Assembly: GCA_045123995.1 (NCBI GenBank)
Contig: JBGVKY010000007.1
Location: forward strand, 109 to 64,108
Length of the DNA: 64,000 nt
Reading direction: 5' to 3'
Source: Clostridia bacterium
GTDB lineage: Bacteria > Bacillota > Clostridia > CAKSNL01 > HGM11501
This document shows, piece by piece, positions 1 through 47,467 of this stretch (the stretch's first letter is position 1; each line of letters begins with the position of its first letter). The position numbers and the translations under genes are program-made. Below the pieces are notes generated by a model. It did no database searches. It had not been told where the DNA came from and was given only the letters and a program-made list of their open reading frames with translations.

Positions 1-2
1 TC

Positions 3-203
3 AAAGGTTCTCATCAGGTTGCACAGCAACTCAAAAATTTAATAAGTGAAAACGGGATCGGTGACAAAGTGGAGCTTTGCGGAATTTTTTGCATGGGCAA
101 ATGCCAGAAGGGCGTTTGTGTAACTTTGGATGACGAATTTCATTCAGTTACCCCTGAAACCGTAGTGGACTTTTTCAAAAACGAAGTTTTAACGAAAGTG
201 TGA
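3..203 (+). CDS. thioredoxin-like [2Fe-2S] ferredoxin, C-terminal fragment (5-prime end lies outside window)
   Basis: Frame 3 is open from the window edge to TGA at 201-203. Translation ...ELCGIFCMGKCQKGVCVTLDDEFHSVTPETVVDFF... carries the Cx3C half of the Cx4C...Cx3C motif and parallels the next ORF. Confidence 0.45.
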   Translation, partial: KGSHQVAQQLKNLISENGIGDKVELCGIFCMGKCQKGVCVTLDDEFHSVTPETVVDFFKNEVLTKV

Positions 204-209
204 TATTTT

Positions 210-455
210 ATGATTATACAGATTTGTGTCGGCAGTTCCTGCCACTTAAAAGGCTCACCTGAAATTGTGAACTTAATTACAGAGGCGATTAAAGAACATA
301 AGCTGGAAGACGAAATAACGCTTACCGGTAGTTTCTGTATCGGTAAATGCAACCGCCAGGGCGTTACCATACAGGTGGATGATGAAATTCACGTTGGCAT
401 TACCCGTGAAAATTTCAAAGACTTCTTCCGTGATAAAGTTCTCGCCTTAATGTAA
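210..455 (+). CDS. thioredoxin-like [2Fe-2S] ferredoxin (NuoE/HydC-like small subunit)
   Basis: 81 aa with CVGSSC ... CIGKC (Cx4C...Cx3C), the hallmark of Trx-fold 2Fe-2S ferredoxins. It is a tandem paralog of the upstream partial ORF and sits directly 5-prime of the hydrogenase genes. Confidence 0.6.
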   Translation: MIIQICVGSSCHLKGSPEIVNLITEAIKEHKLEDEITLTGSFCIGKCNRQGVTIQVDDEIHVGITRENFKDFFRDKVLALM

Positions 456-472
456 AAGAAAGGAAAAGTAAA

Positions 473-2152
473 ATGCCAAACTGTTTAACCCTTAAAAAAT
501 CTAATTGTAAAAACTGTTATAAATGTATACGTCACTGCCCTGTCAAGGCCATTCGTTTTTCCGGAAATCAGGCTCATATCATTGGAAACGAGTGTATTCT
601 TTGCGGACAGTGTTTCGTTGTCTGCCCCCAGAATGCAAAACAGATTGTGGATGAAACCGAAAAGGCAAAGGTTCTTCTTCAGTCAGGTGACCCTGTTATT
701 GTAAGTCTTGCTCCCTCCTTCGTGGCAAACTACGATGGTGTAGGAATCGACTCAATGCGCAATGCCCTTAAAAAGCTGGGCTTTTCAGATGTAGAAGAAA
801 CTGCTATAGGTGCCACAATAGTAAAGAAAGAGTATGAAAGAATGTTAAAGGAGGATGACCTGGATATAGTTATATCTTCATGTTGTCATTCTATAAACCT
901 TCTCATACAGAAGTACTTCCCCGCTGAGCTTGAGTATCTGGCAGATGTGGTTTCTCCCATGCAGGCCCACTCTATGGATATAAAAAAGAGAATTCCGGGT
1001 GCAAAAACCGTATTTATTGGCCCTTGTGTTGCCAAAAAGGACGAAGCAGAACACTATGAGGGTATTGTTGATGCCGTTTTAACCTTTGAAGAACTTACAA
1101 ACTGGTTAAACGAAGAAAATATTGAGCTTTCAAAAGAAATGGATTACGAAGAAGAAAGCCGAGCAAGATTCTTCCCCACCACAGGCGGGATCCTAAAGAC
1201 CATGGTCGATGCTCCTTCCGGCTATACCTATATGGCTCTTGATGGAATTGAAAACTGTATCAGCGCTCTTAAAGACATAGAAAGCGGCAAAATTCACAAA
1301 TGCTTCATCGAAATGTCCGCTTGCGTGGGAAGTTGTATCGGCGGTCCTGTAATGGAAAAATACCACCACACTTCTCCTATAAAGGACTTTATCACAATTT
1401 CAAATTATGCAGGAGACAAAGACTTCACTGTCACTACTCCCGAAAACACAGAGCTTAAGAAACAGTTTACATATATAGAACACAGACTTCAGCCTCCCAC
1501 AGAAACCGAAATTTATAATGTCCTTCGCCAGATGGGTAAATTCAAGCCCTCGGATGAACTCAACTGCGGTTCCTGCGGATATAACACCTGTCGCGAAAAG
1601 GCCATTGCCATCTGCCAGGGAAAAGCAGAAATTTCCATGTGTCTTCCCTACCTTAAAGACAAGGCTGAAAGCTTTTCAGATACCATAGTCAAGAACACTC
1701 CCAACGGACTTATTGTTCTTAACGAAGAACTTGAGGTACAGCAGATAAACGAATCTGCAAGACGCTTAATGAACATTCGTTCAAGTGCTGATGTATTGGG
1801 AGATCTGGTTGTCCGCATCATGGACCCCAAAGACTTTATGGAAGTTAAAACCACGGGCAAAAATATCAAAAACAAAAGAGTATATCTTGCCGAGTACAAG
1901 CGTTTCATAGAACAAACCATTGTATATGATAAGGATTCTCACCTTTTAATCGGAATTCTTCGTGATATCACAGATGAGCAGAACGAGCGCGAAAAGAAGG
2001 AAAGCATCAGCCGTCAAACCGTTGAGGTTGCCGATAAGGTTGTTGATAAACAGATGCGCATTGTTCAGGAAATAGCATCACTTCTGGGAGAAACCGCCGC
2101 AGAAACAAAAATTGCTCTTGCAAAGCTGAAGGAGTCGATACAGAATGAATGA
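473..2152 (+). CDS. hydS: sensory (putative H2-sensing) [FeFe]-hydrogenase with C-terminal PAS domain
   Basis: N-terminal CKNCYKCIRHCP and CILCGQCFVVCP (two 4Fe-4S motifs). The H-cluster domain has variant motifs SSCCHS (P1), FIGPCVAKKDE (P2) and EMSACVGSCIGGP (P3, Met to Ser). The C-terminal ~150 aa (TIVKNTPNGLIVLNEELEVQQINESARRLMN...) is PAS-like. RBS AAAGGAAAAG lies before ATG 473. Confidence 0.75.
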   Translation: MPNCLTLKKSNCKNCYKCIRHCPVKAIRFSGNQAHIIGNECILCGQCFVVCPQNAKQIVDETEKAKVLLQSGDPVIVSLAPSFVANYDGVGIDSMRNALKKLGFSDVEETAIGATIVKKEYERMLKEDDLDIVISSCCHSINLLIQKYFPAELEYLADVVSPMQAHSMDIKKRIPGAKTVFIGPCVAKKDEAEHYEGIVDAVLTFEELTNWLNEENIELSKEMDYEEESRARFFPTTGGILKTMVDAPSGYTYMALDGIENCISALKDIESGKIHKCFIEMSACVGSCIGGPVMEKYHHTSPIKDFITISNYAGDKDFTVTTPENTELKKQFTYIEHRLQPPTETEIYNVLRQMGKFKPSDELNCGSCGYNTCREKAIAICQGKAEISMCLPYLKDKAESFSDTIVKNTPNGLIVLNEELEVQQINESARRLMNIRSSADVLGDLVVRIMDPKDFMEVKTTGKNIKNKRVYLAEYKRFIEQTIVYDKDSHLLIGILRDITDEQNEREKKESISRQTVEVADKVVDKQMRIVQEIASLLGETAAETKIALAKLKESIQNE

Positions 2153-3317
2153 TTTATGTGCAGATATCGGCTGGAAAAGTATCAATCATTACGGTGAACA
2201 ACTTTGCGGTGACCATGTGGACATAGTTGAGCAAAATGATTCTTCAACAGTAATCGTTCTGGCAGACGGTCTTGGCAGCGGAGTTAAAGCAAGTATCTTA
2301 TCAACCCTTACATCAAAAATCATTTCTACCATGATGGCTTCGGGTCTTCCCCTCGAAGAATGTGTTTCTACCATCGCTGCCACTCTTCCCGTATGTTCCG
2401 TAAGGGGTGTTGCATACTCAACATTTACAATTATGCATTTAATAAATAACGATACTGCCGAAATTATTCAATATGATAACCCATTAGCTATAGTTCTTCG
2501 TGACAATAAAAATTTCGACTATCCCAAAACAGAAATGAATATTGACGGAAAGAAAATTTACAAGTCCGTTATACGTTTGGAGGAAGGCGACATTTTTATT
2601 GCAATGAGTGACGGTTGTCCCCATGCCGGAATAGGCATGGCGTATAACTTCGGCTGGAAGAGAGAAGAAATAATTGAATTTATGGAAACCGTCAGCCTTT
2701 CGGGGCTTACTGCCAAAAATCTCTCAACAGTTTTAGTTGATGAGGTTGATAAGCTCTACGGCGGAAAACCGGGAGACGATGCAACGGCATGTATCATAAA
2801 AATCAGAAAGCGAGAACCCATGAACATTCTTTTCGGTCCTCCTTCTAACCGTGATGACTGTGACCGTATGATGTCCCTTTTCTTCTCAAAAGAAGGAAAG
2901 CATATTATATGCGGAGGAACAACTTCTTCTATTGCTGCAAAATATTTAAGAAAGCCACTCCAGACAACTCTCAACTTTGAAAGCTCAGATATTCCTCCCA
3001 TTGCAAAGCTTGAGGGGGTTGATCTGGTGACAGAAGGTGTTATAACTGTAAACAGAGTTTTGGAATATGCCAAAGACTATGTGGGTGATAACCAGATGTA
3101 CGAGCACTGGAATTATAAAAGGGACGGCGCTTCACTTATCTGTCAGCTTCTCTTTGAAGAAGCTACAGATATAAACTTCTATGTAGGCCGTGCCATAAAT
3201 CCTGCTCATCAGAATCCCGATTTGCCTATCAATTTCAGTATTAAAATGAATCTGGTTGAGGAGCTTTCAAAGAGCCTCAGACTTATGGGCAAAAGAATTA
3301 AAGTAAGCTATTTTTAA
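2145..3317 (+). CDS. PP2C/SpoIIE-family serine phosphatase with uncharacterised C-terminal domain
   Basis: N-terminal ~220 aa with VIVLADGLGSGVKASILS and downstream Asp-rich motifs typical of PPM/SpoIIE phosphatases. Overlaps the hydS stop by 8 nt (translational coupling). The C-terminal ~170 aa has no recognisable motif. Confidence 0.7.
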   Translation: MNDLCADIGWKSINHYGEQLCGDHVDIVEQNDSSTVIVLADGLGSGVKASILSTLTSKIISTMMASGLPLEECVSTIAATLPVCSVRGVAYSTFTIMHLINNDTAEIIQYDNPLAIVLRDNKNFDYPKTEMNIDGKKIYKSVIRLEEGDIFIAMSDGCPHAGIGMAYNFGWKREEIIEFMETVSLSGLTAKNLSTVLVDEVDKLYGGKPGDDATACIIKIRKREPMNILFGPPSNRDDCDRMMSLFFSKEGKHIICGGTTSSIAAKYLRKPLQTTLNFESSDIPPIAKLEGVDLVTEGVITVNRVLEYAKDYVGDNQMYEHWNYKRDGASLICQLLFEEATDINFYVGRAINPAHQNPDLPINFSIKMNLVEELSKSLRLMGKRIKVSYF

Positions 3318-3329
3318 GGAGTGTGAGTT

Positions 3330-4757
3330 ATGAGAAAATTTGATACAAAAGTACAACACCTTAAATATAAAGTACTTCGCGAGGTTGCTAAAGAAGCCTG
3401 GAATGACACTCTTCTTGAAAACATCCTTAAAATTCCCGAAACTATTGTTCCGGGGAAAACCCCTACCATGCGTTGCTGTGTCTATAAAGAAAGGGCAATT
3501 TTGCAGGAAAGAATAAAGATTGCAATGGGCGGTAACAAAGAAAATCCCAATGTAATCGAGGTTATCGACATTGCCTGCGACGAATGTCCTGCTGCGGGTT
3601 ATGATGTAACTGATTCATGCAGAGGCTGTCTTGCCCACAGATGCGAAGATGTCTGCAAGAGAGGGGCCATTTCCTTTGACCGTAATCATGTGGCACACAT
3701 TGATAAATCAAAGTGTGTCGAATGTGGTCAGTGCGCAAAGGTATGCCCTTATTCTGCTATTGTAAACCGCAAGCGCCCCTGTCAGAATGCTTGCAAAGTA
3801 AAAGCTATCTCAATTAATGATGATAATGCTGCGGCCATTGACAACAATAAGTGCACTGCCTGCGGTGCTTGTGTTTACCAGTGTCCATTCGGTGCAATAA
3901 CCGATAAATCTTATATTTTAGAAGTTATTGACTTTATAAAGAAAAGTGAAGATAACAAAAAATATAAAGTTTATGCTATGGTAGCACCCTCGATTTCCAG
4001 CCAGTTTACTTATGCAAAGCTGGGTCAGGTTATAAAAGGTCTTAAAAATCTCGGTTTTTACACCGTTATAGAGGCTGCTCTCGGTGCGGATATGGTAGCT
4101 CAGTCAGAATCAAAAGAGCTTTTTGAAAAAGGCTTTCTTACAAGCTCATGTTGCCCGGCATTTGTTTCCTATGTAAAATCGGCATTTCCAGATTTAGTTA
4201 AATATATTTCACATAATCTTTCCCCCATGGCAACTTTAGCTAAATACATAAAGGAAACCGATCCTGAATCAAAAGTAGTATTTATCGGTCCCTGCACCGC
4301 AAAAAAAGCAGAAGCGCAGCTTGAGGAAGTCAAGCATTACGTAGACTCTGTTATGACCTTTGAAGAGCTTCAGGCACTTTTTGACAGCAAAGATATTGAT
4401 ATTACAACTCTCGGGGAAGATGTTCTTGATAACGCATCATATTTCGGAAGAATTTTCGCCCGCAGCGGCGGTCTTTCCGACGCTGTTGCCCAGGCTCTCA
4501 AAGAACAGAATATAGAATTTGACTTAAAGGCGATTCCTTGCGACGGCATTGAGGAATGCAGAGTTGCCCTTCTCAAAAAGAGCAAAAATGTACTTGATGC
4601 CAACTTTATCGAGGGTATGGCTTGCGTTGGAGGTTGTATCGGTGGTGCAGGTTGTCTGACTCACGGTGAAAAAAACAAGGCAGAAGTTGATAAGTACGGA
4701 AAAGAAGCTTTTGAAAAAACCATTTCAGATGCTGTTTCTGTATTAAAACCACTATAA
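3330..4757 (+). CDS. hydA: [FeFe]-hydrogenase catalytic subunit (monomeric HydA2-type with Cys-rich N-terminus and two ferredoxin-like 4Fe-4S motifs)
   Basis: Canonical H-cluster motifs TSSCCPAF (P1), FIGPCTAKKAEA (P2) and EGMACVGGCIGG (P3). CxxCxxCxxxCP motifs CVECGQCAKVCP and CTACGACVYQCP. RBS AAGGAG 8 nt before the ATG. Confidence 0.8.
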   Translation: MRKFDTKVQHLKYKVLREVAKEAWNDTLLENILKIPETIVPGKTPTMRCCVYKERAILQERIKIAMGGNKENPNVIEVIDIACDECPAAGYDVTDSCRGCLAHRCEDVCKRGAISFDRNHVAHIDKSKCVECGQCAKVCPYSAIVNRKRPCQNACKVKAISINDDNAAAIDNNKCTACGACVYQCPFGAITDKSYILEVIDFIKKSEDNKKYKVYAMVAPSISSQFTYAKLGQVIKGLKNLGFYTVIEAALGADMVAQSESKELFEKGFLTSSCCPAFVSYVKSAFPDLVKYISHNLSPMATLAKYIKETDPESKVVFIGPCTAKKAEAQLEEVKHYVDSVMTFEELQALFDSKDIDITTLGEDVLDNASYFGRIFARSGGLSDAVAQALKEQNIEFDLKAIPCDGIEECRVALLKKSKNVLDANFIEGMACVGGCIGGAGCLTHGEKNKAEVDKYGKEAFEKTISDAVSVLKPL

Positions 4758-4851
4758 TAAAAAAGAGATAATACCTTTGAACTGTTCCAGTTTGTACAGA
4801 CAATACAAAAAAATAGTTCCTAAGGTAGACCGTTAAATTTTAAGCAACATA

Positions 4852-4885
4852 CTGACATCGCTTTTCAAGCGGTGTCATTTTTGTT
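4852..4885 (+). terminator. rho-independent terminator after hydA
   Basis: tgacatcgc-ttttcaa-gcggtgtca hairpin (9 bp, one G-U) followed by tttttgtttt. Confidence 0.5.
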
Positions 4886-5162
4886 TTCAGTTGTATTCTT
4901 TTATTATTGTACAAAGCAGAATTGCCTGTGTAAGACAGCAGAACGAATTAAGGGAAAATCAATTCGATAATTCTTCATAAAAGCCTTAGAAGACATTTTT
5001 GAGTCGATTATTCCCGAACTTTCTCTGACCATCATATCAAAATATGACATTCATCAATCAAAGAAAAGACGGAACGAAACTCACTCTTTATTAAACTTTA
5101 TTTTTGTTAGTATATCCGCTCACAAAACAAGAAATACTATACAAAAACCACGGAGATAATAA

Positions 5163-5339
5163 ATGTCAAAAAATAACTATTTTAAAGGTTGGTACTTTAA
5201 ATGCTATGCAAATGATACAACAATTACTTTTATTCCGGCGTACCATCTAGTAATAGAATGGTACGCTTATGTTATCCGTTGCAGAAATTGCAATATATGG
5301 GTCCCATTCCACAGCAAATTTAAACACATTGAATTTTGA
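5163..5339 (+). CDS. hypothetical small protein (58 aa, aromatic/Cys-rich; may be spurious)
   Basis: ATG with GGAGA RBS 6 nt upstream. MSKNNYFKGWYFKCYANDTTITFIPAYHLVIEWYAYVIRCRNCNIWVPFHSKFKHIEF. Below the 60-aa ORF-track cutoff. Contains a perfect 9-bp hairpin (gcgtaccat...atggtacgc, 5236-5264). Confidence 0.2.
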   Translation: MSKNNYFKGWYFKCYANDTTITFIPAYHLVIEWYAYVIRCRNCNIWVPFHSKFKHIEF

Positions 5340-5473
5340 AAGTAGCTTGTTTTATTTATCTTAGCACACTCACTACTTGTGTATTTATATAAAACCTGGG
5401 GTATACTTTCTTTGTATGAGTTAATTCAACATTTTTTGTGATATATCAACCTAATAATAAGGAGAATAAAATC

Positions 5474-5779
5474 ATGTCGGTATTAGTAGTTAGTAAAAAT
5501 AATTTCCAAAAAGAAGTTTTAGAAAGCGACAGACCGGTGCTATTAGATTTCTGGGCAAGCTGGTGCGGACCTTGCAAGGCGATTTCGCCTATTATAGATG
5601 AAATATCAGCGGAATATCCTGAGATTAAGGTATGCAAGGTAAACATAGATGAAGAACAAGAACTTGCCTCACAATTTGACATAATGAGTGTTCCGACACT
5701 TCTGGTTATTAAAGACGGTAAAGTAGTAAATCAATCAGTTGGACTAAAGTCTAAAAATCAAATTCTCCAGATGCTTTAA
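5474..5779 (+). CDS. trxA: thioredoxin
   Basis: WCGPC active site ([14 protein letters not shown]). GGAGA RBS 8 nt before ATG 5474. The ORF-track start at 5438 lies upstream of the RBS. Confidence 0.85.
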
Positions 5780-5816
5780 ACATGTAAAGAGTATGTCACT
5801 ATAAGGAGAATAAGCA

Positions 5817-6740
5817 ATGGAAAAAATATATGATGTAATTGTAATTGGTGGGGGTCCTGCAGGATATACTTCGGCAATTTACACATCAAGATCAGGTTTT
5901 GATACTTTAGTGCTTGAAAAATTTTCTGCAGGCGGACAGATGACACAAACTCCACAAATAGATAATTATCCCGGTTTTCCCGAAGGCGTGGACGGATTTG
6001 AGTTAGGAACTAAAATGCGAGAGGGAGCAGAAAGATTTGGCTCCAAAACTGTTCAAGCAGAAGTTATTGAGGTAAATCTGAAAGATAAAATAAAAACAAT
6101 TAAGACACCAGACGAAGTTCTTTTTGCTCACAGCGTCATAATCGCAATGGGAGCTGAGCATAAGCATTTGGGACTTGAAAATGAAGAAAATTTGATTGGC
6201 AAAGGTGTAGGATATTGTGCCGCTTGCGATGGTATGTTCTATAAAGGGAAAACCGCCACAGTTATCGGCGGAGGAAACTCAGCAGCGGCAGATGCTCTTT
6301 TACTTTCTAAAATATGTGAAAAGGTTATCTTAGTCCATAGAAGGGACACATTAAGAGCTGAAAAGGTTTATCATGAGCCTCTACTTAAAGCTCAGAATGT
6401 AGAGTTTGAGTGGAATAGCAAGGTTTGTGAAATTTTAGCTGACAATAAGGTTACGGGTATTAAAATCAAAAATTCAGCACAAGGCACGGAAAAAGAAATC
6501 CATACAGACGGTGTTTTTATAAGCATTGGAAGAGTGCCTCAGACAGAGTTATTTCGCGGTCAACTTGATATTGATAAAAATGGTTACATTATAGCAGACG
6601 AAACAACAAAAACCAGTATAAGCGGAGTTTTTGCAGTAGGAGATGTCCGTACCAAACCCGTTCGTCAGATTGTAACCGCTACGGCTGATGGAGCATGTGC
6701 ATCTCATTTTGCAGAAGAATATTTAGCAACTATACAGTAG
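5817..6740 (+). CDS. trxB: thioredoxin-disulfide reductase (low-Mr TrxR; active-site variant CAAC)
   Basis: FAD motif VIVIGGGPAGYTSAIY, NADPH motif GGGNSA, redox Cys pair in GYCAACDG. RBS AAGGAGAA. Confidence 0.85.
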   Translation: MEKIYDVIVIGGGPAGYTSAIYTSRSGFDTLVLEKFSAGGQMTQTPQIDNYPGFPEGVDGFELGTKMREGAERFGSKTVQAEVIEVNLKDKIKTIKTPDEVLFAHSVIIAMGAEHKHLGLENEENLIGKGVGYCAACDGMFYKGKTATVIGGGNSAAADALLLSKICEKVILVHRRDTLRAEKVYHEPLLKAQNVEFEWNSKVCEILADNKVTGIKIKNSAQGTEKEIHTDGVFISIGRVPQTELFRGQLDIDKNGYIIADETTKTSISGVFAVGDVRTKPVRQIVTATADGACASHFAEEYLATIQ

Positions 6741-6791
6741 ATAATATACATTTATCAGTAAGCTATATCTAAATTTGAAGAAAAGACACGG

Positions 6792-6828
6792 ATTTCAATC
6801 GAAATCTGTGTCTTTTTCTGATAGAGAT
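6792..6828. terminator. bidirectional terminator between convergent trxB and ferritin
   Basis: aaaagacacggatttc-aatcg-aaatctgtgtctttttc: 12-bp stem with an A-run upstream and a T-run downstream. Confidence 0.5.
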
Positions 6829-6881
6829 AACCATAAGGCTTTAATCTTAACACTTTGCTATTATAAAGCTTTTATAAAAAA

Positions 6882-7394
6882 TTATAAAACTAACGACGGA
6901 GCTGTATAAACTCGTGCTGCAAGTTCCTGATTGAGCATATAAAGACTTTTTGGATCCGAACCAAAAAGTTCCATCTTTGTAATCAAATCATTTGCATTTG
7001 TTTCCTCTTCACCTTGTTCCTTAACAAACCAATCAAGGAACTGCATTGTGCGAAAATCTTTAACATTGTATGCTGCTGCATAAATATCATTTATAAGTGA
7101 TGTTACATATTCTTCGTGTTCAAGTCCTGCCTTTAAAACATCCATATGGCTAGAAAATGTCTTGTCAGGTTTTGCAATAGCCTCAAGAGTTACTTTTTGA
7201 TTCTCGTTTTGGAGATACTGATAGAAAAGCATTGCATGGTCACGCTCTTCCTGTGCCTGAATCTTATACCAGTTGGCAAATCCGTCAAGGCCTGCATCTT
7301 CAAAATAATTCGAAAAATCAAGGTAGAGATACGCAGAATAGAACTCTTTGTTGATCTGTTGATTTAAAAGTTCATGTACTTTTTCATTCATCAT
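6882..7394 (-). CDS. ftnA: ferritin (non-haem, Ftn-like)
   Basis: Ferritin-like di-iron motifs (EFYSAYLYLDF, QEERDHAMLFYQYL). TTGATT-17-TATAAT promoter and GGAGG RBS upstream on the minus strand. Confidence 0.8.
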   Translation of the reverse strand: MMNEKVHELLNQQINKEFYSAYLYLDFSNYFEDAGLDGFANWYKIQAQEERDHAMLFYQYLQNENQKVTLEAIAKPDKTFSSHMDVLKAGLEHEEYVTSLINDIYAAAYNVKDFRTMQFLDWFVKEQGEEETNANDLITKMELFGSDPKSLYMLNQELAARVYTAPSLVL

Positions 7395-7455
7395 AATATT
7401 ATACCTCCGTTTTTTACCTTTATTATATCATGTATGTATGAAAAAATCAACAAAA

Positions 7456-7496
7456 AAACACAGATGGAGAAATTTTGAACCTCCGTCTGTGTTTTT
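7456..7496. terminator. terminator after SDR gene
   Basis: cacagatggag-aaattttgaac-ctccgtctgtg hairpin flanked by A and T runs. Confidence 0.45.
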
Positions 7497-7498
7497 GT

Positions 7499-8296
7499 CT
7501 ATCTGCGATTTAATTTGTCTGACAAATCTCCATATACAGGTGTTGCCAAACCAAAACCGCCGGACACGGTTAGTATTTGACCCGTGGTATAAGCAGAATC
7601 ATCTGATGCAAAGTAAACTGCTGCTGCGGCAATTTCTTCTGGTGCACCCATTCTTTTAAAGGGAATATGACGCATAAACAGTTCTCTGAAACCCTCCGTA
7701 AGATTTTTTTCTACTGCATCGGTTGCAGTCATTCCCGGTAAGATTGCGTTACATCGAATATTATTTTTTGCTTCATGTACCGCTATAAGTTTTGTCAGGT
7801 AGTTAATAGCAGCCTTACTTGTTCCGTATGCAACCTGAGAAATATCAGGAACAAGACCTCCCACAGAGGAGATATTTATAATACTTCCTCCACCGTTTTT
7901 CACCATATGTTTTGCTGCCTCTTTGCTTGCCATAAAAACGCTTCGCAAATTGATATTTACAATATCAAAGAAAATCTCTGTATCGGTATTTGAAAAGTCA
8001 AGGTCTTTTCCAGGATTTGAAGTGCCGAAGTTGTTAACCAAAACATCAATACGCCCTGCATCTTTTATTACTTCATCAGTCATAGAAATATAAGATTCGC
8101 TCTTACTTGCATCGTTATAAACATATCTTACTATACAGCCCTGGTCATTCAGCTTGTCAGCCTCCTGCTTTGCAAGTTCTAAATTTCTTGCCGCCATATA
8201 AACTATAGCACCTTCTTTAGCAAAGGATTTAGTGATGGCAAGACCTATTCCTCGGGTTGAGGCAGTTATTAAAACAACTTTGTCTTTTAATTTCAT
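7499..8296 (-). CDS. SDR-family NAD(P)-dependent oxidoreductase (7-alpha-HSDH/FabG-like)
   Basis: TASTRGIG Rossmann motif, YGTSKAAINYLTK catalytic YxxxK. Start overlaps the MFS stop (ATGA-type). Confidence 0.7.
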   Translation of the reverse strand: MKLKDKVVLITASTRGIGLAITKSFAKEGAIVYMAARNLELAKQEADKLNDQGCIVRYVYNDASKSESYISMTDEVIKDAGRIDVLVNNFGTSNPGKDLDFSNTDTEIFFDIVNINLRSVFMASKEAAKHMVKNGGGSIINISSVGGLVPDISQVAYGTSKAAINYLTKLIAVHEAKNNIRCNAILPGMTATDAVEKNLTEGFRELFMRHIPFKRMGAPEEIAAAAVYFASDDSAYTTGQILTVSGGFGLATPVYGDLSDKLNRR

Positions 8297-9708
8297 GCTT
8301 TTTCTCCTTTTTTATTATAAATTTTAGGCAGGAACAACACTATCGCAATTCCCGCAATAACATAAATAATTTCCGCTACAGCAAGAAACTTTATAGAATT
8401 TACTGCGGCGGTTATTTCACCCTTCCCGCTACTTATAATATTTGTTACTCTGTTTGTGAAAAGAGGAACAAATATAGCTACACCAAAGGGTGCTGCAAGG
8501 TCTCGGAATAAACCATAAGTTCCGGTTCCTGCTCCTGCAGTTTCAGCAGGCACCCCTGACAATACAACTTTCATAAAAATAGTGGCATTTCCTCCAAGCC
8601 CAAAGCCCAAGATACCAAGAGATACGGCAAGAATAATTACAGAAGTTTGGGCAGTAAATAAAAGCATAATAGCACATCCAACCCCTGTAAGAGAAAGAGA
8701 AGCAGTCAAAACCTTTTTAGGCTCTATGCGGTCTGCTAACGGGCCTAAAACAACTGACCCAAGTGACATCCCTATATACATAATTGAAATTGCATAGCTG
8801 GATATAATAGTATTATCAGGCTGTGTGTAGTTGATAAATACAATTATATTTGTCATATTTGCCTGCATAAGTCCCTGAGTTAAAAAGAGAGCCAGAACTG
8901 AGAGAAAAAACTTTTTTCTCTTCATAAACTTCCAACTGAGAATTGGATTTATTGCCTTTTTTTCTGCATAAAACAAACCGACAAATGATATAACTGATGC
9001 AATTAAAATAATTAAAAACCATATTGATCTGATACCAAAATTCTGACCAAAGGACGGCAAACATAACACAAGAGTAAAGAAAATTAAAACCCATACAGAA
9101 CCGATACCGTCAAAATCTGCAAGAGGTCTTATGCTTATGCCATCTTTTCTGTGTGTTACAAGGCAAAGCAAAAATATGATAACAGAGATTGCAACGCATA
9201 TCCACATCATTGAACCCCAGCCATAAAACTCAATAAGTAATCCGCCAAGTGTAGGTCCGAAAATTACTGCACTGCTCGAAATAAGCATATATAAAGAAAA
9301 ACCCTTTGCAATTTTCTCACGCGGAAACTCTGTAACAATGTATGACATTACCACCGGTGCAATGGCTGCGCTTCCTATGCCTACAATAAAACGGGCAATA
9401 ATCATAAAAAACAGCGATGAGGCTATTGCCGTAAGGATATTACCCAAAGTAAAAATCGCTATACCAATCAATAATGTTGCTTTCCTGCCTATTACATCAC
9501 CCAGCTTGCCAAGAATGGGTGCAAACGCTGCTGTGGAAGCTGCCATCGCTAAAGCTGTCCATGTTGTGTTGTTGTACGGCAAGTTTAAGTCACTTACGAA
9601 TGCAGGTCCAAGCACGGCAGTAAATCCGCCCACAGCACCTACTAAAAATGCCGCGAGCGCATATGGCACAAAACCACTTAAATAAGGTTTTGAAGAACTA
9701 ATTTCCAT
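8293..9708 (-). CDS. MFS transporter (14-TM, DHA2-like)
   Basis: 471 aa, highly hydrophobic with multiple TM segments; GxLaDrxGrk-like MFS motif (LGKLGDVIGRK). Confidence 0.7.
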   Translation of the reverse strand: MEISSSKPYLSGFVPYALAAFLVGAVGGFTAVLGPAFVSDLNLPYNNTTWTALAMAASTAAFAPILGKLGDVIGRKATLLIGIAIFTLGNILTAIASSLFFMIIARFIVGIGSAAIAPVVMSYIVTEFPREKIAKGFSLYMLISSSAVIFGPTLGGLLIEFYGWGSMMWICVAISVIIFLLCLVTHRKDGISIRPLADFDGIGSVWVLIFFTLVLCLPSFGQNFGIRSIWFLIILIASVISFVGLFYAEKKAINPILSWKFMKRKKFFLSVLALFLTQGLMQANMTNIIVFINYTQPDNTIISSYAISIMYIGMSLGSVVLGPLADRIEPKKVLTASLSLTGVGCAIMLLFTAQTSVIILAVSLGILGFGLGGNATIFMKVVLSGVPAETAGAGTGTYGLFRDLAAPFGVAIFVPLFTNRVTNIISSGKGEITAAVNSIKFLAVAEIIYVIAGIAIVLFLPKIYNKKGEKA

Positions 9709-9725
9709 AAGTTATCACTCCAATC

Positions 9726-9997
9726 TAGCCGTTGGAGTATCAAACTCCATACGCCTTAAACTTGTTAAATTTTAATCTTTTTAATTTGTCGTCCTCGAAA
9801 GGCGACAGCATTCCTTCGTACTCCGCATCAAAAATCTTGAAAATTTTTCTTAGTTTAAGGTCGAAGAGTTTCAAAACAAGAAATTTTTATTAAGATAAAG
9901 AAATTTCAAGAATTATACTTTCGTATGTTCGCAGGAATTTCTGCGATATTAAGGGAAATTTCTGTTTTCAAACCGCATGGAGTTCGATACTCCGACG
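9726..9997. repeat. 24-bp near-perfect inverted repeats flanking ~225 bp (MITE-like or large regulatory palindrome)
   Basis: agccgttggagtatcaaactccat (9726-9749) versus the reverse complement of atggagttcgatactccgacggct (9974-9997): 22/24 match. Internal secondary IRs (gccttaaac/gtttaaggtc; cgcaggaatttctgcg). Confidence 0.4.
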
Positions 9998-10076
9998 GCT
10001 AACCATAGTATACCCTATATTCGCGTATTTATTTAGCACACTTGGTTATACTTTTATGTAGAAAGGAGGAATAGTT

Positions 10077-10451
10077 TTGAAAGAACTGTTTTTTATTTGC
10101 AAGCATTGCGGAAATATCATTGCGATGATAAAAAATAGCGGTGTTCCTATACAATGCTGCGGCGAAGATATGCAGGAAATAATTCCGGGCACTACGGAGG
10201 CATCCGAAGAAAAACATATTCCCGTATATAAAACAGAAGGTGATAAGGTAACCGTTTCAGTCGGTTCGGCCCAGCATCCGATGGAACCGGAGCATTATAT
10301 CGAGTGGGTGTGCATTGAAAGTGATGATGGCTTCCAGTACAAGAGGCTTTCGCCAAACACACCTCCGAAGGCAAACTTTTCATTATCCAAGGGAGACAGC
10401 GTAAAAGCAGTATATGCCTTTTGCAATCAGCATAGCCTTTGGAAAGCATAA
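10077..10451 (+). CDS. dfx: desulfoferrodoxin (superoxide reductase, 2Fe-SOR)
   Basis: N-terminal desulforedoxin CxxC...CC (CKHCGN ... QCCGE) plus a neelaredoxin domain (EKHIPV, HPMEPEHYIEW). TTG start 6 nt after GGAGGA. Confidence 0.8.
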   Translation: MKELFFICKHCGNIIAMIKNSGVPIQCCGEDMQEIIPGTTEASEEKHIPVYKTEGDKVTVSVGSAQHPMEPEHYIEWVCIESDDGFQYKRLSPNTPPKANFSLSKGDSVKAVYAFCNQHSLWKA

Positions 10452-10479
10452 AATTAAAAAAGTAAAGGAGAATAAAATT

Positions 10480-11043
10480 ATGTCATTGATTAACAAAGAA
10501 ATTTCAGATTTTAAAGCTTACGCATTTCACGGAGACGATTTTAAGATGGTTTCCAAAGAAGAGATTTTAGGTAAATGGAGCGTGTTCTTTTTCTATCCTG
10601 CGGATTTTACCTTTGTATGCCCAACGGAGTTGGAAGATTTAGCAAATAAGTATGAGGATTTTAAAAATGTGGGATGTGAGATATACTCTGTATCTACCGA
10701 CACTCATTTTGTTCATAAAGCATGGCACGATGCATCTGAAAGAATTAAAAAAATCAATTATCCTATGCTTGCTGATCCGACTCATGAAATTTCAAGAGAT
10801 TTTGAGGTTTTAATCGAAGCTGACGGCCTTGCAGAACGCGGCACCTTTATCATAAATCCTGAAGGAAAGATCGTGGGTTATGAAGTAACAGCAGGAAATG
10901 TTGGGAGAAACGCAGAAGAACTCTTCCGTAAGGTTCAGGCATGTCAGTTTGTTCATGCTCATGGCGACCAGGTATGTCCTGCTAACTGGCAGCCTGGTGC
11001 TGAAACATTAAAACCGAGTCTTGATCTCGTAGGTCAGTTATAA
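10480..11043 (+). CDS. ahpC: peroxiredoxin AhpC (typical 2-Cys)
   Basis: FFFYPADFTFVCPTE peroxidatic Cys motif and resolving Cys in HGDQVCPANW. AAGGAGAA RBS before ATG 10480. Confidence 0.85.
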   Translation: MSLINKEISDFKAYAFHGDDFKMVSKEEILGKWSVFFFYPADFTFVCPTELEDLANKYEDFKNVGCEIYSVSTDTHFVHKAWHDASERIKKINYPMLADPTHEISRDFEVLIEADGLAERGTFIINPEGKIVGYEVTAGNVGRNAEELFRKVQACQFVHAHGDQVCPANWQPGAETLKPSLDLVGQL

Positions 11044-12701
11044 TGAGCAGTATACAAAACATTAACCAAGATAATTTATATGATGTTGTAGTGATAGGCG
11101 GCGGGCCGGCAGGACTTACCGCCGCCATTTATCTCTCTCGTGCAAGATACCGTGTGTTAGTTCTTGAAAAAGAACAGTTTGGCGGTCAGATTACCATTAC
11201 ACATGAGGTTGTAAATTATCCGGGCTTAGGAAAAATAAGTGGAAAAGAGCTTACCGAAACTATGCGCCGTCAGGCAGAAACCTTTGGAGCAGAATTTTTA
11301 ATGGCAAAAGCAGAAGGCCTGAAAATGGATGATATTGTTAAAACCGTTCACACAAGCCGTGGGGATTTTCAATGTTTAGGAGTTCTGCTTGCTACCGGTG
11401 CACATCCGAGATCTATAGGATTTAAAGGAGAAGAAGAACACAAAGGTCGAGGAGTTGCTTATTGTGCTACATGTGACGGAGAATTTTTTACAGGGAAAGA
11501 GGTTTATGTAGTTGGCGGAGGCTTTGCTGCGGCAGAAGAAAGTGTATTCTTAACTAAATTTGCCCGTCATGTAACAATTCTTGTTCGGAATGATGATTTC
11601 ACATGTGCTATGGCTGTTGCAGAACCGGCGAAAAATCACGAAAAAATAACCGTTATTTATAACACGGTTGTAGAAGAAGTAAACGGCGAAAATGGTCTTA
11701 ATTATATTAGATATAAAAATACCAAAAGCGGAGATGTTACCGAATATCAAGCAGAAGACGGAGATAACTTCGGAGTATTTGTGTTTGCCGGATATTCTCC
11801 TGACACAGAGCTTGTTAAAGATATTGCAAAGTTAAATGAATACGGCTATGTTATAACCGACTCAAGTCAAAAAACGACTATTGATGGATTGTATGCAGCA
11901 GGCGATGTATGTATTAAACCGCTTCGTCAGGTGGTTACTGCTACAGGCGACGGTGCATTGGCGGCTACAGAGCTTGAAAAATATGTTGCCGAAATGCAGA
12001 GAAAAACAGGTCTTCATCCGAAACCTCCCGTTACAAGAATGACAGAATATCCAAATGCAACAAAAACCGCTGAGACATCTGATGATTCCGATGATATATT
12101 TACAGCAGAAATGAAAGCACAGTTAGAGGGCGTGTTTTCGAAAATGGAACGCAAGCTTATCCTTAAGCTGTATCTTGATAATCGCCCTGTGTCTTTAGAA
12201 TTGGAAAATTATATAACAAATCTTGCAGACCTTACAGACAAGCTTACAGTCATGGTAGCTGATAAAAATGACCAATCAAATCTTGCACCATGTGTGCGAG
12301 TCTTTTCAGAGGATGGAATTGATTCGGGGATTGCATTTCACGGTGTGCCGGGAGGACATGAGTTTACCTCTTTTGTACTGGGGCTTTACAATGCAGCAGG
12401 TCCCGGACAGACAATAGATGAAGATACATTAAAGGAAGTTGAAGAAATTCAAAATCAAACCGATATGAAGATTTTAGTTTCTTTGTCTTGTACGATGTGC
12501 CCCGATTTGGTAATTGCCTGTCAGCGCATAGCAACTATAAATAAAAATATTAAAGCAGAAGTATACGACCTTCAACATTTTGAAGATTTAAAGACAAAAT
12601 ATAATGTTATGAGCGTTCCTTGTTTGGTTATCAACGATGAACATGTATCTTTTGGAAAAAAGAATATAAATCAGATTGTTGATATAGTAAAAAAAGTATA
12701 A
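11043..12701 (+). CDS. ahpF: AhpF-like NADH-dependent peroxiredoxin reductase with swapped domain order (TrxR-like N-terminus, AhpF-NTD-like double Trx fold at C-terminus)
   Basis: N-terminal VVVIGGGPAGLTAAIY and AYCATCDGEFF (TrxR CATC). The C-terminus has GVPGGHEFTSFVLGLYNAAG and a CTMCPD redox motif matching the AhpF N-terminal domain. TAATG overlap with ahpC. Confidence 0.7.
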   Translation: MSSIQNINQDNLYDVVVIGGGPAGLTAAIYLSRARYRVLVLEKEQFGGQITITHEVVNYPGLGKISGKELTETMRRQAETFGAEFLMAKAEGLKMDDIVKTVHTSRGDFQCLGVLLATGAHPRSIGFKGEEEHKGRGVAYCATCDGEFFTGKEVYVVGGGFAAAEESVFLTKFARHVTILVRNDDFTCAMAVAEPAKNHEKITVIYNTVVEEVNGENGLNYIRYKNTKSGDVTEYQAEDGDNFGVFVFAGYSPDTELVKDIAKLNEYGYVITDSSQKTTIDGLYAAGDVCIKPLRQVVTATGDGALAATELEKYVAEMQRKTGLHPKPPVTRMTEYPNATKTAETSDDSDDIFTAEMKAQLEGVFSKMERKLILKLYLDNRPVSLELENYITNLADLTDKLTVMVADKNDQSNLAPCVRVFSEDGIDSGIAFHGVPGGHEFTSFVLGLYNAAGPGQTIDEDTLKEVEEIQNQTDMKILVSLSCTMCPDLVIACQRIATINKNIKAEVYDLQHFEDLKTKYNVMSVPCLVINDEHVSFGKKNINQIVDIVKKV

Positions 12702-20564: not shown

Positions 20565-20593
20565 TTGACAATTTGACCTTCTTTGACTATAAT
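20565..20593 (+). promoter_or_regulatory. sigma-A promoter of the ctsR operon (TTGACA-17-TATAAT)
   Basis: -35 TTGACA at 20565-20570, 17-nt spacer, -10 TATAAT at 20588-20593. Confidence 0.6.
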
Positions 20594-20627
20594 GTACTTA
20601 GAAAAGTCAAAAATAGTCAAAGTCAAA
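20572..20627 (+). promoter_or_regulatory. tandem CtsR operators (heptad direct repeats) overlapping the promoter
   Basis: 20572-20588 tttgaccttctttgact is the reverse complement of AGTCAAAGAAGGTCAAA. 20605-20627 AGTCAAAAATAGTCAAAGTCAAA. Both fit A/GGTCAAA-NAN-A/GGTCAAA. Confidence 0.65.
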
Positions 20628-20638
20628 GGAGAATTGTT

Positions 20639-21085
20639 ATGCATTTAAGTAACAGTATTGAAGAATTTTTAAATGAACTTCTTTCTTCCATGGACGGAAG
20701 CGTTGAAATAAAGAGAAATGAGCTGGCAGAACGTCTTGGTTGCGTTCCCTCCCAGATTAACTATGTTATACAGACCCGTTTTACTAAAGAACGCGGTTTT
20801 TCTGTGGAAAGCAGGCGCGGAGGCGGTGGCTTTATCAGGATTACAAAGGTCAAGGTCAAAGGCGACGAATATATCATGCATATAATAAACAGCATAGGTC
20901 CCTCACTTGACTATCCTACAAGTCATGCTTTAGTATCAAATCTCTTAGGGTATAATAAAATAACAGATAGAGAAGCAAAAATAATGCTTGCCGCCCTTTC
21001 CGATTCATCACTTCCCTTCCCCATTTCTGTAAAAAATCAGGTAAGAAGCTCAATTATGAAAAATATACTTATAAATCTTATATAA
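20639..21085 (+). CDS. ctsR: class III stress-gene repressor CtsR
   Basis: HTH region (ERLGCVPSQINYVIQTRF) and glycine-rich loop RRGGGGFIRI. AAGGAGAA RBS before ATG 20639. First gene of ctsR-mcsA-mcsB-clpC. Confidence 0.85.
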   Translation: MHLSNSIEEFLNELLSSMDGSVEIKRNELAERLGCVPSQINYVIQTRFTKERGFSVESRRGGGGFIRITKVKVKGDEYIMHIINSIGPSLDYPTSHALVSNLLGYNKITDREAKIMLAALSDSSLPFPISVKNQVRSSIMKNILINLI

Positions 21086-21108
21086 TTCGACACAATCAAA
21101 AGAAAGGA

Positions 21109-21585
21109 ATGATTATAATGTTATGTGAAAGATGTAATAAAAATCCTGCCACCATGCACTATACCCAGGTTATAAACGGTCAGGTTTCTGAATATCACCT
21201 TTGCGAAAAATGTGCCAGGGAGGAAAAAATGACATCGGATTTTTCCGATTTTGATATATTCAACATGTTTTCTCCCAAAAAGGTAAAAAGTGAAAGTTCG
21301 CTTATTTGCCCCAACTGCAAAACCACTTTATCCGAATTCAGGAAACACGGAATTGCAGGATGTGCCACCTGCTATGATGTTTTCTCTTCCGTTATAGAGC
21401 CTATACTCCTCCAGACTCAGGGAACAAAAACTCACTTAAAGCCGAAGGCTGAAAAGAAAGAAGAGACAAAGAAAGAAAAAATCACCCGTCTCGAAAATGC
21501 TTTGAAGGAAGCAGTTAAAAAGGAAGAATATGAAAAGGCTGCTTCTTTGCGAGACGAAATAAAATTACTTAAGGAGGAAGAATAA
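21109..21585 (+). CDS. mcsA: McsA (activator of protein arginine kinase McsB; zinc-finger plus UVR domain)
   Basis: CERCNK...CEKC and CPNCK...CATC zinc fingers. C-terminal UVR motif EEYEKAASLRDEIKLLKE. Confidence 0.75.
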   Translation: MIIMLCERCNKNPATMHYTQVINGQVSEYHLCEKCAREEKMTSDFSDFDIFNMFSPKKVKSESSLICPNCKTTLSEFRKHGIAGCATCYDVFSSVIEPILLQTQGTKTHLKPKAEKKEETKKEKITRLENALKEAVKKEEYEKAASLRDEIKLLKEEE

Positions 21586-22598
21586 TGAGCTGGTATAAAG
21601 AGAAAGGTCCTGAAAGCGAAATAGTTTTGAGCACAAGAGTCCGTTTTGCCAGAAATCTGCCAGGTTATAAATTCCCCTCAAAAATGACGGAAGAAGAAAG
21701 AAGCAAGCTTATAGGTGAAGTTTCTGATGCGTTTTTTGGTTCCAACAGTACATTTTCGGATAACTTCCGCCTTTTAAAAACCAAAGAAGAAACAAAGGAC
21801 AGGCTTCTTAGCTTATATGAAAAGCATTTAATAAGCCGTGAGCTTATAAGAAATCCCCTGCCCTCGGCAGTCATAATGGGAAATGACGAAAAATTCTCTT
21901 TAATGCTTTTAGAAGAAGACCATGTAAGACTTCAGGTTATACTTCCCGGAAATCAGATGAAAGAGGCACTTAAAATGGCTAAGGACTACGAAAAGCTCCT
22001 TGACGGAAGGCTTTCTTTCTCCAGAAACGAATCTTTGGGATATTTAACAGCCTGCCCCACCAATCTCGGTACGGGATTAAGGATTTCTGTTATGCTCCAT
22101 CTTCCCGCTCTTACGGTTACTAAAAAAATCGGCAGAATATTAAACTCTGTCGGTAAATTGGGCCTTACGATAAGGGGAATGCACGGAGAGGGCACCGAAG
22201 CCAAAGGCTCGTTCTATCAGCTTTCCAACCAGGTGACGTTGGGAATGAATGAGGAAGACATCTTGAAAAAGGTCGATTCTGTTTTAGTAAGAATTATTGA
22301 AATAGAGAAAAACCTAAGAGAAGAATTGCTTAAAAATGCTGAATCTGAAATAAAAAACAAGTGCATGAGAGCCTACGGAATACTTAAAAATTCCTACGCC
22401 TTAACCAGCGAAGAAGCCATAACCTTCCTTTCTGATGTAAGACTGGGAAAAGCTCTCGGCTTTTTGGAGGCAGACTATACCTCCCTTAATACCTTTATGG
22501 TTTTAAGCTCTCCTTACTATCTGTCGTCTGAAGAGAATTTAAAAGATCCCAATCTCCGCGATATAAGAAGAGCTTCTTTAGCGAAAGAAATTTTATAG
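21585..22598 (+). CDS. mcsB: protein arginine kinase McsB
   Basis: ATP:guanido phosphotransferase signature CPTNLGTGLR. ATGA overlap with mcsA. Confidence 0.9.
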   Translation: MSWYKEKGPESEIVLSTRVRFARNLPGYKFPSKMTEEERSKLIGEVSDAFFGSNSTFSDNFRLLKTKEETKDRLLSLYEKHLISRELIRNPLPSAVIMGNDEKFSLMLLEEDHVRLQVILPGNQMKEALKMAKDYEKLLDGRLSFSRNESLGYLTACPTNLGTGLRISVMLHLPALTVTKKIGRILNSVGKLGLTIRGMHGEGTEAKGSFYQLSNQVTLGMNEEDILKKVDSVLVRIIEIEKNLREELLKNAESEIKNKCMRAYGILKNSYALTSEEAITFLSDVRLGKALGFLEADYTSLNTFMVLSSPYYLSSEENLKDPNLRDIRRASLAKEIL

Positions 22599-22613
22599 AA
22601 AAGAGTGATTTAA

Positions 22614-29443: not shown

Positions 29444-29453
29444 AATTCTCCTT

Positions 29454-30860: not shown

Positions 30861-30879
30861 TTTTCCTCCCCGGTCCTTT

Positions 30880-31128
30880 TTAGCCTTCAGACAATTCGCT
30901 TATGCGCTCCTGGGCCTTGCCCTTCTGTCCCAATGCCTGCTCTATTACTAGGGCATATTTTCTCTTGATTTTTACTTTCTTTCCTCTGGGAACTATGAGC
31001 GCTGTTCCGTTTAAGATTACAACAACGTCATCTTTATATCTGCCGTCATCCTTGTGAAGTGTTATTTCAACTTCCTCATTTAAGTAATCCTTGTTTTCGT
31101 AAATGTTTTCTTTAACCTTTGTAGCCAT
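30880..31128 (-). CDS. small phage protein of unknown function (82 aa, basic)
   Basis: ATG 31128 preceded by GAAAGGAA; the ORF-track TTG start at 31146 abuts the capsid stop. No motif. Confidence 0.3.
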   Translation of the reverse strand: MATKVKENIYENKDYLNEEVEITLHKDDGRYKDDVVVILNGTALIVPRGKKVKIKRKYALVIEQALGQKGKAQERISELSEG

Positions 31129-31146
31129 AGTATCAATTCCTTTCAA

Positions 31147-32148: not shown

Positions 32149-32166
32149 TATAATTCCTCCATTTAA

Positions 32167-32844: not shown

Positions 32845-32864
32845 GAAAAATCCCTCCTAAAAGT

Positions 32865-33158: not shown

Positions 33159-33179
33159 CCCCCCTTTCAATAATTTTTC

Positions 33180-36915: not shown

Positions 36916-36941
36916 ATTTTTTCTCCTTCCTCAATTTAATT

Positions 36942-37320: not shown

Positions 37321-37335
37321 TACGAGGTGATACTT

Positions 37336-47417: not shown

Positions 47418-47467
47418 AATCTTATCTCCTTTATATTTAGTCACAATTTTTAGTTAAAGAGCAAAAA

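Follow-up and report, generated by a model that had tools for sequence, protein, structure and literature searches.

We examined a stretch of 64,000 nucleotides (nt) from a Clostridia bacterium (assembly GCA_045123995.1, contig JBGVKY010000007.1, positions 109 to 64,108 of the forward strand; hereafter the window), whose first 4,757 nt hold five tightly packed plus-strand genes built around a HydS-type [FeFe]-hydrogenase and a SpoIIE/PP2C phosphatase. In order, these encode the C-terminal portion of a thioredoxin-like [2Fe-2S] ferredoxin (ferredoxin 1; 3' part of the gene at 3–203, 66 codons plus stop visible), a second thioredoxin-like [2Fe-2S] ferredoxin (ferredoxin 2; 210–455, 81 amino acids (aa), Pfam PF01257 2Fe-2S_thioredx), a putative sensory [FeFe]-hydrogenase of the HydS/HfsB type (473–2152, 559 aa, assigned from Pfam matches and orthology to Ruminococcus albus HydS), an HfsC-type SpoIIE/PP2C Ser/Thr phosphatase (2145–3317, 390 aa, Pfam SpoIIE) and a group B [FeFe]-hydrogenase of the HydA2/HfsD type (3330–4757, 475 aa, NCBIfam TIGR04105). 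Open reading frames (ORFs), coordinates and domain content bear out the five-gene module proposed in an earlier, sequence-only reading of this DNA, as does the 8-nt overlap between the HydS stop and the phosphatase start (ATGAATGA), which is preceded by a GAAGGAG Shine–Dalgarno sequence. Judged by this arrangement, the phosphatase gene is translationally coupled to HydS. The remaining intergenic gaps measure 6, 17 and 12 nt, the last of them placing AAGGAG between the phosphatase stop and the hydrogenase ATG, and the operon genes are probably co-translated. A strong intrinsic terminator at 4853–4887 on the plus strand (11-bp stem with 5 GC pairs, 3-nt loop and T-run tail; TTTTTGTTTT) closes the operon. 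An Rfam search of 1–6000 returned no riboswitch, leader or other family match, and a sigma-70 promoter scan stayed at background (16 found versus 14.1 expected); the promoter region of the operon, with any Rex operator there, would lie outside the window.

HydS comprises an N-terminal 2x[4Fe-4S] ferredoxin-like domain (aa 8–55; 494–637; Fer4_21, Fer4_7 and Fer4_10 matches), an H-domain (aa 74–292; 692–1348; Fe_hyd_lg_C, 170 bits, E 8e-50), a C-terminal Cx2Cx4Cx16C [4Fe-4S] motif (aa 363–392; 1559–1648; PF04060, 37 bits versus a cutoff of 23), a putative PAS domain (about aa 403–501; 1679–1975) and a C-terminal helix (aa 521–559; 2033–2149), with five predicted iron–sulfur (FeS) sites per HydS. 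To map active-site residues, HydS and the hydrogenase encoded by the last gene were aligned to a fragment of the enzyme CpI. HydS displays the H-cluster motifs SSCCHS, GPCVAKKDE and EMSACVGSCIGG and keeps all four H-cluster cysteines (C138/C185/C284/C288, equivalent to CpI C300/C355/C499/C503) along with K358, E361 and the Cys299 equivalent. Its proton-relay residues are replaced (E279 by Y121, E282 by M124 and S319 by A157), as are the methionines that frame the diiron site (M353 by Gly183 and M497 by Ser282). These methionine substitutions are those of the characterised sensor TmHydS (PMC8163306, PMC10055695), a group C (M2f) enzyme of Thermotoga maritima with the same plan of 2x[4Fe-4S], H-domain and Cx2Cx4Cx16C motif followed by PAS, which in the window's HydS is putative, and in which E279, E282 and S319 are likewise not conserved (PMC10055695). 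The two enzymes differ at the Cys299 position, which is Ala in TmHydS and Cys in the window; the cysteine is kept by only about 17% of sensory sequences (PMC10055695). The Cx2Cx4Cx16C motif, readable in the translation as CGSCGYNTC-x16-C, is a hallmark of M2e/M2f sensory enzymes (PMC8163306, PMC10055695). HydS also scores below both curated catalytic models (FeFe_hydrog_B1, 193 bits versus a cutoff of 450; group A, 86 versus 406). Its aligned residues show that HydS has a complete H-cluster site but no longer an intact proton relay, and that its M353G/M497S pocket is of the kind typically seen in slow, sensory hydrogenases.

The sequence-only reading had described HydS as a de-tuned, PAS-containing hydrogenase. 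The first half of that description stands on the lost proton relay and the M353G/M497S replacements, and the second half has to be softened: PAS, PAS_9, PAS_8 and PAS_4 are the top Pfam matches in the region, all of them sub-threshold (best 18.7 versus a cutoff of 22.6 bits), though the PAS_9 match spans the whole model. Weak sequence matches to PDB entries point to the CitA and ThkA PAS domains (E 0.05–0.08), and the R. albus HydS orthologue has been described as PAS-containing (PMC10838669). Across 77 orthologues, the PAS core is the least conserved segment (mean identity 0.46–0.7), and the last two blocks of the protein reach 0.96 and 0.87, so that the tail of about 40 residues, including the C-terminal helix, is more conserved than either the H-domain or the PAS core; the cluster motif and the start of the PAS region are also among the most conserved blocks. 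The conserved C-terminal helix may be a docking or signalling element.

The phosphatase has two domains. Its PP2C catalytic domain (aa 1–222; 2145–2810), within which the SpoIIE/PP2C match covers aa 32–220 (57 bits versus a cutoff of 25), carries the motifs CGD(21–23), DGLGSG(41–46), SDG(155–157) and DD(211–212). In an alignment of 57 sequences with 32–69% identity, CGD, DGxGSG, SDG and DD are invariant or nearly so at these positions. The conserved metal-binding aspartates that the sequence-only reading had singled out for checking are present, as is the PPM fold, and on this alignment the phosphatase is catalytically intact. The AlphaFold2 (AF2) model (pLDDT 91, pTM 0.90) gives the remainder of the protein (aa 225–390; 2817–3314) a Rossmann-like fold. 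Pfam returned no match for this domain of about 165 residues at E <= 10. Its conserved motifs (GPP, CGGTT, PP, DLVTEG and NPAH) lie where strands end and helices begin, the usual ligand sites of such folds, a placement suggested by the alignment and the AF2 model together. In the SpoIIE, RsbU and RsbP phosphatases, the catalytic domain is preceded by the regulatory ones, whereas the extra, Rossmann-like domain of the window's phosphatase is C-terminal. An exact-sequence lookup of the phosphatase gave no record, and a 90%-identical relative was used in its place. A word-indexed homologue search yielded only relatives of at least 89% identity, named 'SpoIIE family protein phosphatase' or unnamed, and a representative library of 50%-identity clusters was used for diversity. 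The search of this library gave 2125 phosphatase relatives, with 524 reaching E <= 1e-30. Almost every complete relative is about 385–395 aa long and aligns with the window's protein from end to end.

The hydrogenase encoded by the last gene had been called a canonical catalytic HydA, a name that is wrong as to class. Alongside several Fer4 matches and Fe_hyd_lg_C (202 bits), the protein matches TIGR04105 FeFe_hydrog_B1 at 574.5 bits (cutoff 450; aa 4–445 on model positions 1–461 of 462), whereas the group A model reaches only 155.8 bits against a cutoff of 406. It retains C299, E279, E282, S319 and M497 (as C274, E260, E263, S294 and M430) together with K325, and has Gly (G320) at the M353 position, as does the group B enzyme CpIII (PMC10055695). 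By the B1 match and the retained residues, the protein is a catalytically competent group B enzyme of the HydA2/HfsD type and not a HydA of the prototypical group A. In one paper R. albus HydA2 is termed 'group A1' (PMC6776011); this label for the 80%-identical orthologue (R. albus locus L082:10187–11623) clashes with the curated B1 placing of the window's protein, an inconsistency in the literature.

Both small ferredoxins are of the thioredoxin-like [2Fe-2S] type. Ferredoxin 2 matches PF01257 at 34.2 bits (cutoff 24.8) and shows the four-cysteine pattern C6-x4-C11 ... C43-x3-C47. Ferredoxin 1 has weak NuoE-family matches (E 8.5e-4), and only the CMGKC half of the cysteine pattern is visible; since a full-length orthologue of 79 aa, from the related locus L001, begins MKIKVCIGSSCHIKGS, about 13 codons are lost at the window edge.

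The closest known counterpart is on plasmid pRUMAL01 of R. albus 7 (RUMAL_RS17345–17385), where the order is LysR-Rex-AdhE-phosphotransferase-fdx-fdx-HydS-SpoIIE-HydA2 and the last five genes are colinear with the window. Protein identities are 64% for ferredoxin 1 (RUMAL_RS17365, '(2Fe-2S) ferredoxin domain-containing protein'), 62% for ferredoxin 2 (RUMAL_RS17370), 72.5% for HydS, 79% for the phosphatase (RUMAL_RS17380) and 79.7% for the hydrogenase (HydA2). HydS, phosphatase and hydrogenase measure 558, 389 and 478 aa in R. albus versus 559, 390 and 475 in the window, the 8-nt HydS/phosphatase overlap is identical, and the R. albus HydS shares the H-cluster motifs SSCCHS, GPCV.KKDE and EMSAC.GSCIGG. 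The surroundings differ: the R. albus cluster sits on a 421-kb plasmid, whereas the flanks in the window are chromosomal-type housekeeping genes and, unlike in R. albus, an oxidative-stress gene cluster follows downstream. The counterpart of the LysR-Rex-AdhE-kinase half falls outside the window, which begins inside ferredoxin gene 1. The R. albus hydS–hydA2 system has already been described (Zheng 2014, as cited; Greening et al. 2019, PMC6776011). Expression of its eight-gene cluster is 90–111-fold lower when a partner organism, Wolinella, removes H2 (PMC6776011, PMC10838669), and the fermentation stoichiometry of R. albus tracks the H2 level (PMC6776011).

The same parts recur in hfsABCD of Thermoanaerobacterium saccharolyticum and T. 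thermosaccharolyticum, known since 2009 (Shaw 2009, as cited; PMC5707799, PMC11837493): a hydrogenase with a PAS domain (HfsB), a serine phosphatase (HfsC) and a second hydrogenase, ferredoxin-linked and similar to R. albus HydA2 (HfsD). That system has a single small upstream gene (hfsA) and a thermophilic host, whereas the window has two ferredoxin genes, and its correspondence with the window rests on papers that equate HfsB with HydS and HfsD with HydA2 rather than on sequences. In T. saccharolyticum, deletion of hfsA or hfsB raises adhE transcript, alcohol dehydrogenase activity, ethanol yield and hydrogenase activity (PMC5707799; also PMC11837493, PMC12288451, PMC13277313). These effects need intact hfsC and hfsD, and the genetics point to a regulatory role of HfsB (PMC5707799). 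We regard it as close to certain that the window operon has orthologues both in hfsABCD and in the fdx-fdx-hydS-PP2C-hydA2 genes of R. albus 7. We read 1–4887 as the last five genes of a hydS/hfs-type operon whose host is a gut or rumen relative of Ruminococcus (Oscillospirales).

These genetic results also bear on the original 'Hfs' view, in which the operon encodes one multi-subunit catalytic hydrogenase. H2 would be made by HydS as well as by the group B enzyme, with the ferredoxins serving as subunits for electron transfer and the phosphatase only tuning the complex after translation. Tight gene packing and probable co-translation would suit such a complex, as would a HydS that keeps all its cluster ligands and Cys299; enzymes of the sensory type have a slow H2 turnover (PMC8163306), hydrogenase activity falls when the entire hfs operon is deleted (PMC5707799), and a 2026 paper raises a possible functional HfsABC hydrogenase without HfsD (PMC13277313). 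However, deleting hfsB by itself has the reverse of the effect expected from losing a catalytic subunit, since adhE expression and hydrogenase activity both go up (PMC5707799), and HydS is without E279, E282 and S319, with M353 and M497 replaced as in slow enzymes. Distant HydS–PP2C pairs, moreover, are joined in some lineages to a group B hydrogenase and in others to a bifurcating, NuoF-containing operon, a variety of outputs that would be expected of a regulatory cassette. We consider a single catalytic complex quite unlikely.

The module also fits a class recognised by HydDB, whose group C3 is termed 'phosphatase-linked (putative)', is often paired with group B and 'may sense H2 and regulate via serine/threonine phosphatases' (PMC5037454); in Vallitalea, C3 and B enzymes are encoded two genes apart (peg.96/98; PMC6163223). 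As in that class, a hydrogenase in the window, with a putative PAS domain, lies beside a Ser/Thr phosphatase, the neighbour that defines C3, with a group B enzyme two genes off. We place HydS as a putative sensory enzyme of group C (M2f / HydDB C3), the C3 subgroup being assigned from context and orthology to R. albus HydS. The sequence-only reading had presented the arrangement as a lead, but hfsABCD (PMC5707799), R. albus hydS–hydA2 (PMC6776011) and HydDB C3 (PMC5037454) make it an established class: the window module is not novel, and adds one more member to a widespread system that has already been described. What we add is small: that the phosphatase ends in a Rossmann-like domain, that the HydS tail is extremely conserved and Cys299 retained, that the HydS–phosphatase overlap is an invariant core and that relatives encode a kinase at a position just outside the window. 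In the literature we surveyed, the fold of the phosphatase C-terminal domain and the conservation of the HydS tail went without mention.

We scanned one genome per species, of which at least 598 carried a phosphatase relative, and assembled a set of 81 related loci. The best 80 relatives (76–91% identity) come from gut or rumen metagenome-assembled genomes labelled Clostridia, Acutalibacteraceae, Oscillospiraceae or Ruminococcus. The full fdx-fdx-HydS-PP2C-hydrogenase order is found in at least 63 of the 81 loci, most others being short contigs or split ORF calls; the five-gene order is not a chance arrangement. Monoglobus, at 56% identity, has fdx-HydS-PP2C-hydrogenase, and phosphatases of only 33–35% identity still overlap and directly follow a HydS-like gene. 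What comes after these distant pairs varies: one is followed by a bifurcating-hydrogenase operon that includes NuoF along with HATPase_c and DRTGG-like proteins, the other by a HAMP histidine kinase. Because the distant pairs persist with different following genes, we take the overlapping HydS–phosphatase pair as the conserved core and its outputs as variable. The first of these loci (L085:3332–11179) is headed by a 33%-identical pair that also overlaps by 8 nt, followed by genes for a NuoE-like protein, two DRTGG-like small proteins, a HATPase_c_2 kinase-like protein, a shorter M2e-like hydrogenase, a PHP protein, another HATPase_c protein and a NuoF-type subunit, an order that matches bifurcating-hydrogenase operons.

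Conservation of this depth bears on whether the adjacency carries any signalling meaning at all, the phosphatase being instead an unrelated housekeeping PP2C that happens to share the operon. Such a view could draw on the want of a known substrate and on one distant two-domain homologue located away from any hydrogenase: Acetoanaerobium noterae (L083:7992–9173) encodes a full-length protein of 38% identity with no HydS or other hydrogenase within 8 kb, its neighbours being transporter, CoA-transferase-like, threonyl-tRNA-synthetase-like and ribosomal-protein genes as judged from N-terminal sequence only. This homologue indicates that the phosphatase family is not strictly hydrogenase-linked. 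Yet the overlapping pair is kept from 91% down to 33% identity across orders of Clostridia, and hfsC genotype alters the fermentation phenotype (PMC5707799), so that we find a meaningless adjacency barely credible. A separate proposal, that the C-terminal domain of the phosphatase is specific for HydS docking, is weakened by the same Acetoanaerobium protein, which has the domain and no HydS within 8 kb.

The genes upstream of the module supply a candidate for the opposing activity. A gene for a kinase of about 249 aa with an APH/RIO fold (Pfam APH 60 bits, RIO1 39 bits; motif HGDFNPSN...DWS) lies immediately 5' of ferredoxin gene 1 in 43 of the 81 loci, for example at L002:5037–5792, and likewise in R. 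albus (L082:6058–6807). Other recurrent upstream neighbours, often ahead of the kinase, are AdhE (25 loci), Rex (21) and a LysR regulator (29). Lactate dehydrogenase genes stand beside or inside the module in about 12 loci (such as L005, L012, L058, L059, L061 and L066), tying the cassette to a second fermentation branch point; in some loci the gene sits between those for the phosphatase and the group B hydrogenase. The sequence-only reading had placed the cognate kinase or anti-sigma partner outside the window. That much holds: Pfam scans of ORFs from 5.4 to 46.8 kb (46809–47444 and 47625–48011 excepted) gave no kinase, STAS or anti-sigma partner gene, and a six-frame regular-expression scan of the whole window found no Hanks kinase, STAS or GHKL motif. 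The likely partner is, however, not remote, being encoded in relatives just upstream of ferredoxin gene 1, a position that falls just off the left edge because the window begins inside that gene. Classic partner switching, with an RsbU/SpoIIE phosphatase, a STAS protein and a GHKL kinase, was rejected because no STAS or anti-sigma gene appeared among the window ORFs scanned or the recurrent neighbours of the 81 loci. The module differs from SpoIIE, RsbU and RsbP systems in having no STAS substrate or GHKL anti-sigma kinase nearby, the relatives' kinase being APH/RIO-like; the HATPase_c_2 gene near the 33%-identical HydS–PP2C pair sits with small proteins that are DRTGG-like, not STAS-like.

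From these lines of evidence we propose that the operon encodes an H2-sensing phosphatase switch. HydS would bind or slowly oxidise H2, with the two small [2Fe-2S] ferredoxins as an electron outlet, and its state would be relayed through the C-terminal cluster, the PAS domain and the conserved terminal helix to the phosphatase, held in a complex of roughly 1:1 stoichiometry. Without H2, HydS would keep the phosphatase off; with H2, or with HydS deleted, the phosphatase would counter the APH/RIO-like kinase on a target of both. AdhE and the group B hydrogenase would then be more highly expressed or more active, and fermentation would move from acetate plus H2 to ethanol as H2 accumulates. The T. 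saccharolyticum genetics fit best with HydS restraining the phosphatase at low H2, because the hfsA/hfsB deletion pattern matches that of a sensor that inhibits the phosphatase. Taken by itself, this switch model is one that we hold with somewhat better than even confidence; for the statement that joins orthology to H2 sensing through a phosphatase switch, we put the probability at roughly 0.7.

HydS might, alternatively, report the redox state of ferredoxin or NAD(H) rather than H2, with the ferredoxins, the C-terminal cluster, PAS and perhaps the Rossmann-like domain of the phosphatase reading reducing power alongside Rex. Two dedicated ferredoxins and the number of FeS sites predicted in each HydS would suit a redox sensor, as would the presence of Rex in the same cluster in R. 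albus and in the 21 related loci noted above; the extra domain of the phosphatase folds like a nucleotide-binding domain and carries its conserved motifs at strand ends, and the PAS domain of HfsB has been described as possibly redox-responsive (PMC11837493). A conserved and complete H-cluster site, which needs costly maturation by HydEFG, would nevertheless be hard to explain, and fermentation stoichiometry in R. albus follows H2 (PMC6776011). On balance a sensor of redox state alone appears unlikely.

Several points count against the H2-sensing switch. H2 dependence, complex formation and the direction of control are carried over by analogy from other organisms, not from the window. In the group D enzyme TamHydS, the C-terminal cluster gave no response to H2 (PMC13104023), which leaves the relay from cluster to PAS unproven, and the PAS matches themselves are sub-threshold. 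Retention of Cys299, rare among sensory enzymes, suggests that HydS may turn over faster than TmHydS. Because deleting hfsA was polar on hfsB (PMC5707799), what the ferredoxins contribute cannot be cleanly separated. The closest relatives differ upstream, with the kinase gene in L002 and a divergent Na/Pi-PhoU gene in L001, the Acetoanaerobium homologue stands apart from any hydrogenase, and no phosphatase substrate is known in any system. The sequence-only reading was right that downstream signalling lacks a mechanistic account, in agreement with papers of 2024–2026, according to which neither the way in which sensory [FeFe]-hydrogenases transmit their signal nor the partners with which they interact are known (PMC11376134, PMC13104023).

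A more speculative extension, which we offer tentatively and think improbable as it stands, is that HfsC-family phosphatases are two-input switches. They would combine the H2 signal from HydS, docked through its C-terminal helix, with a nucleotide-type metabolite such as NAD(H), or a phospho-ligand, bound by the C-terminal domain. Acting against the APH/RIO-like kinase, they would adjust the amounts of AdhE and hydrogenase both to H2 pressure and to the redox or energy state of the cell.

In gut and rumen fermenters, H2 partial pressure decides between acetate plus H2 and ethanol plus lactate, and so feeds methanogens and other H2 consumers. The hydS–phosphatase cassette is the leading candidate for H2 sensing in Clostridia. 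The window adds no new principle; it shows how very widespread the cassette is, that the overlapping HydS and phosphatase genes are its conserved core and that the C-terminal domain is a constant part of the phosphatase. The HydS–phosphatase core, the C-terminal domain of the phosphatase and the upstream APH/RIO-like kinase of relatives are concrete biochemical targets.

Beyond the operon terminator, a spacer of about 550 nt (4890–5437; AT-rich, GC about 0.33) extends to trxA and holds a 58-codon ORF from 5164 (MSKNNYFKGWYFKCYANDTT...), which is below the length used for the ORF list and is possibly a small gene or gene fragment. The oxidative-stress cluster directly 3' of the operon (5438–12701) encodes a thioredoxin, thioredoxin reductase, ferritin, short-chain dehydrogenase/reductase, major facilitator superfamily transporter, desulfoferrodoxin, AhpC-type peroxiredoxin and an AhpF-like reductase with a thioredoxin domain. 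A CtsR-McsA-McsB-ClpC stress operon occupies 20573–25052; its McsB is an arginine kinase, unrelated to the operon phosphatase. A compact phage-like block at 26818–37971 encodes a P22-like portal, large terminase, capsid protein, Prp-like protease, amidase, holin and SLH-domain protein, together with a LexA/S24-type repressor (37327–37971) and four ORFs that had no Pfam match (26818–27792, 30880–31146, 32167–32844 and 35083–36915); the block may be what is left of a prophage, or else a locus for a phage-derived particle. From 48 kb on, the window has the look of a ribosomal-protein operon, as judged from ORF sizes only.

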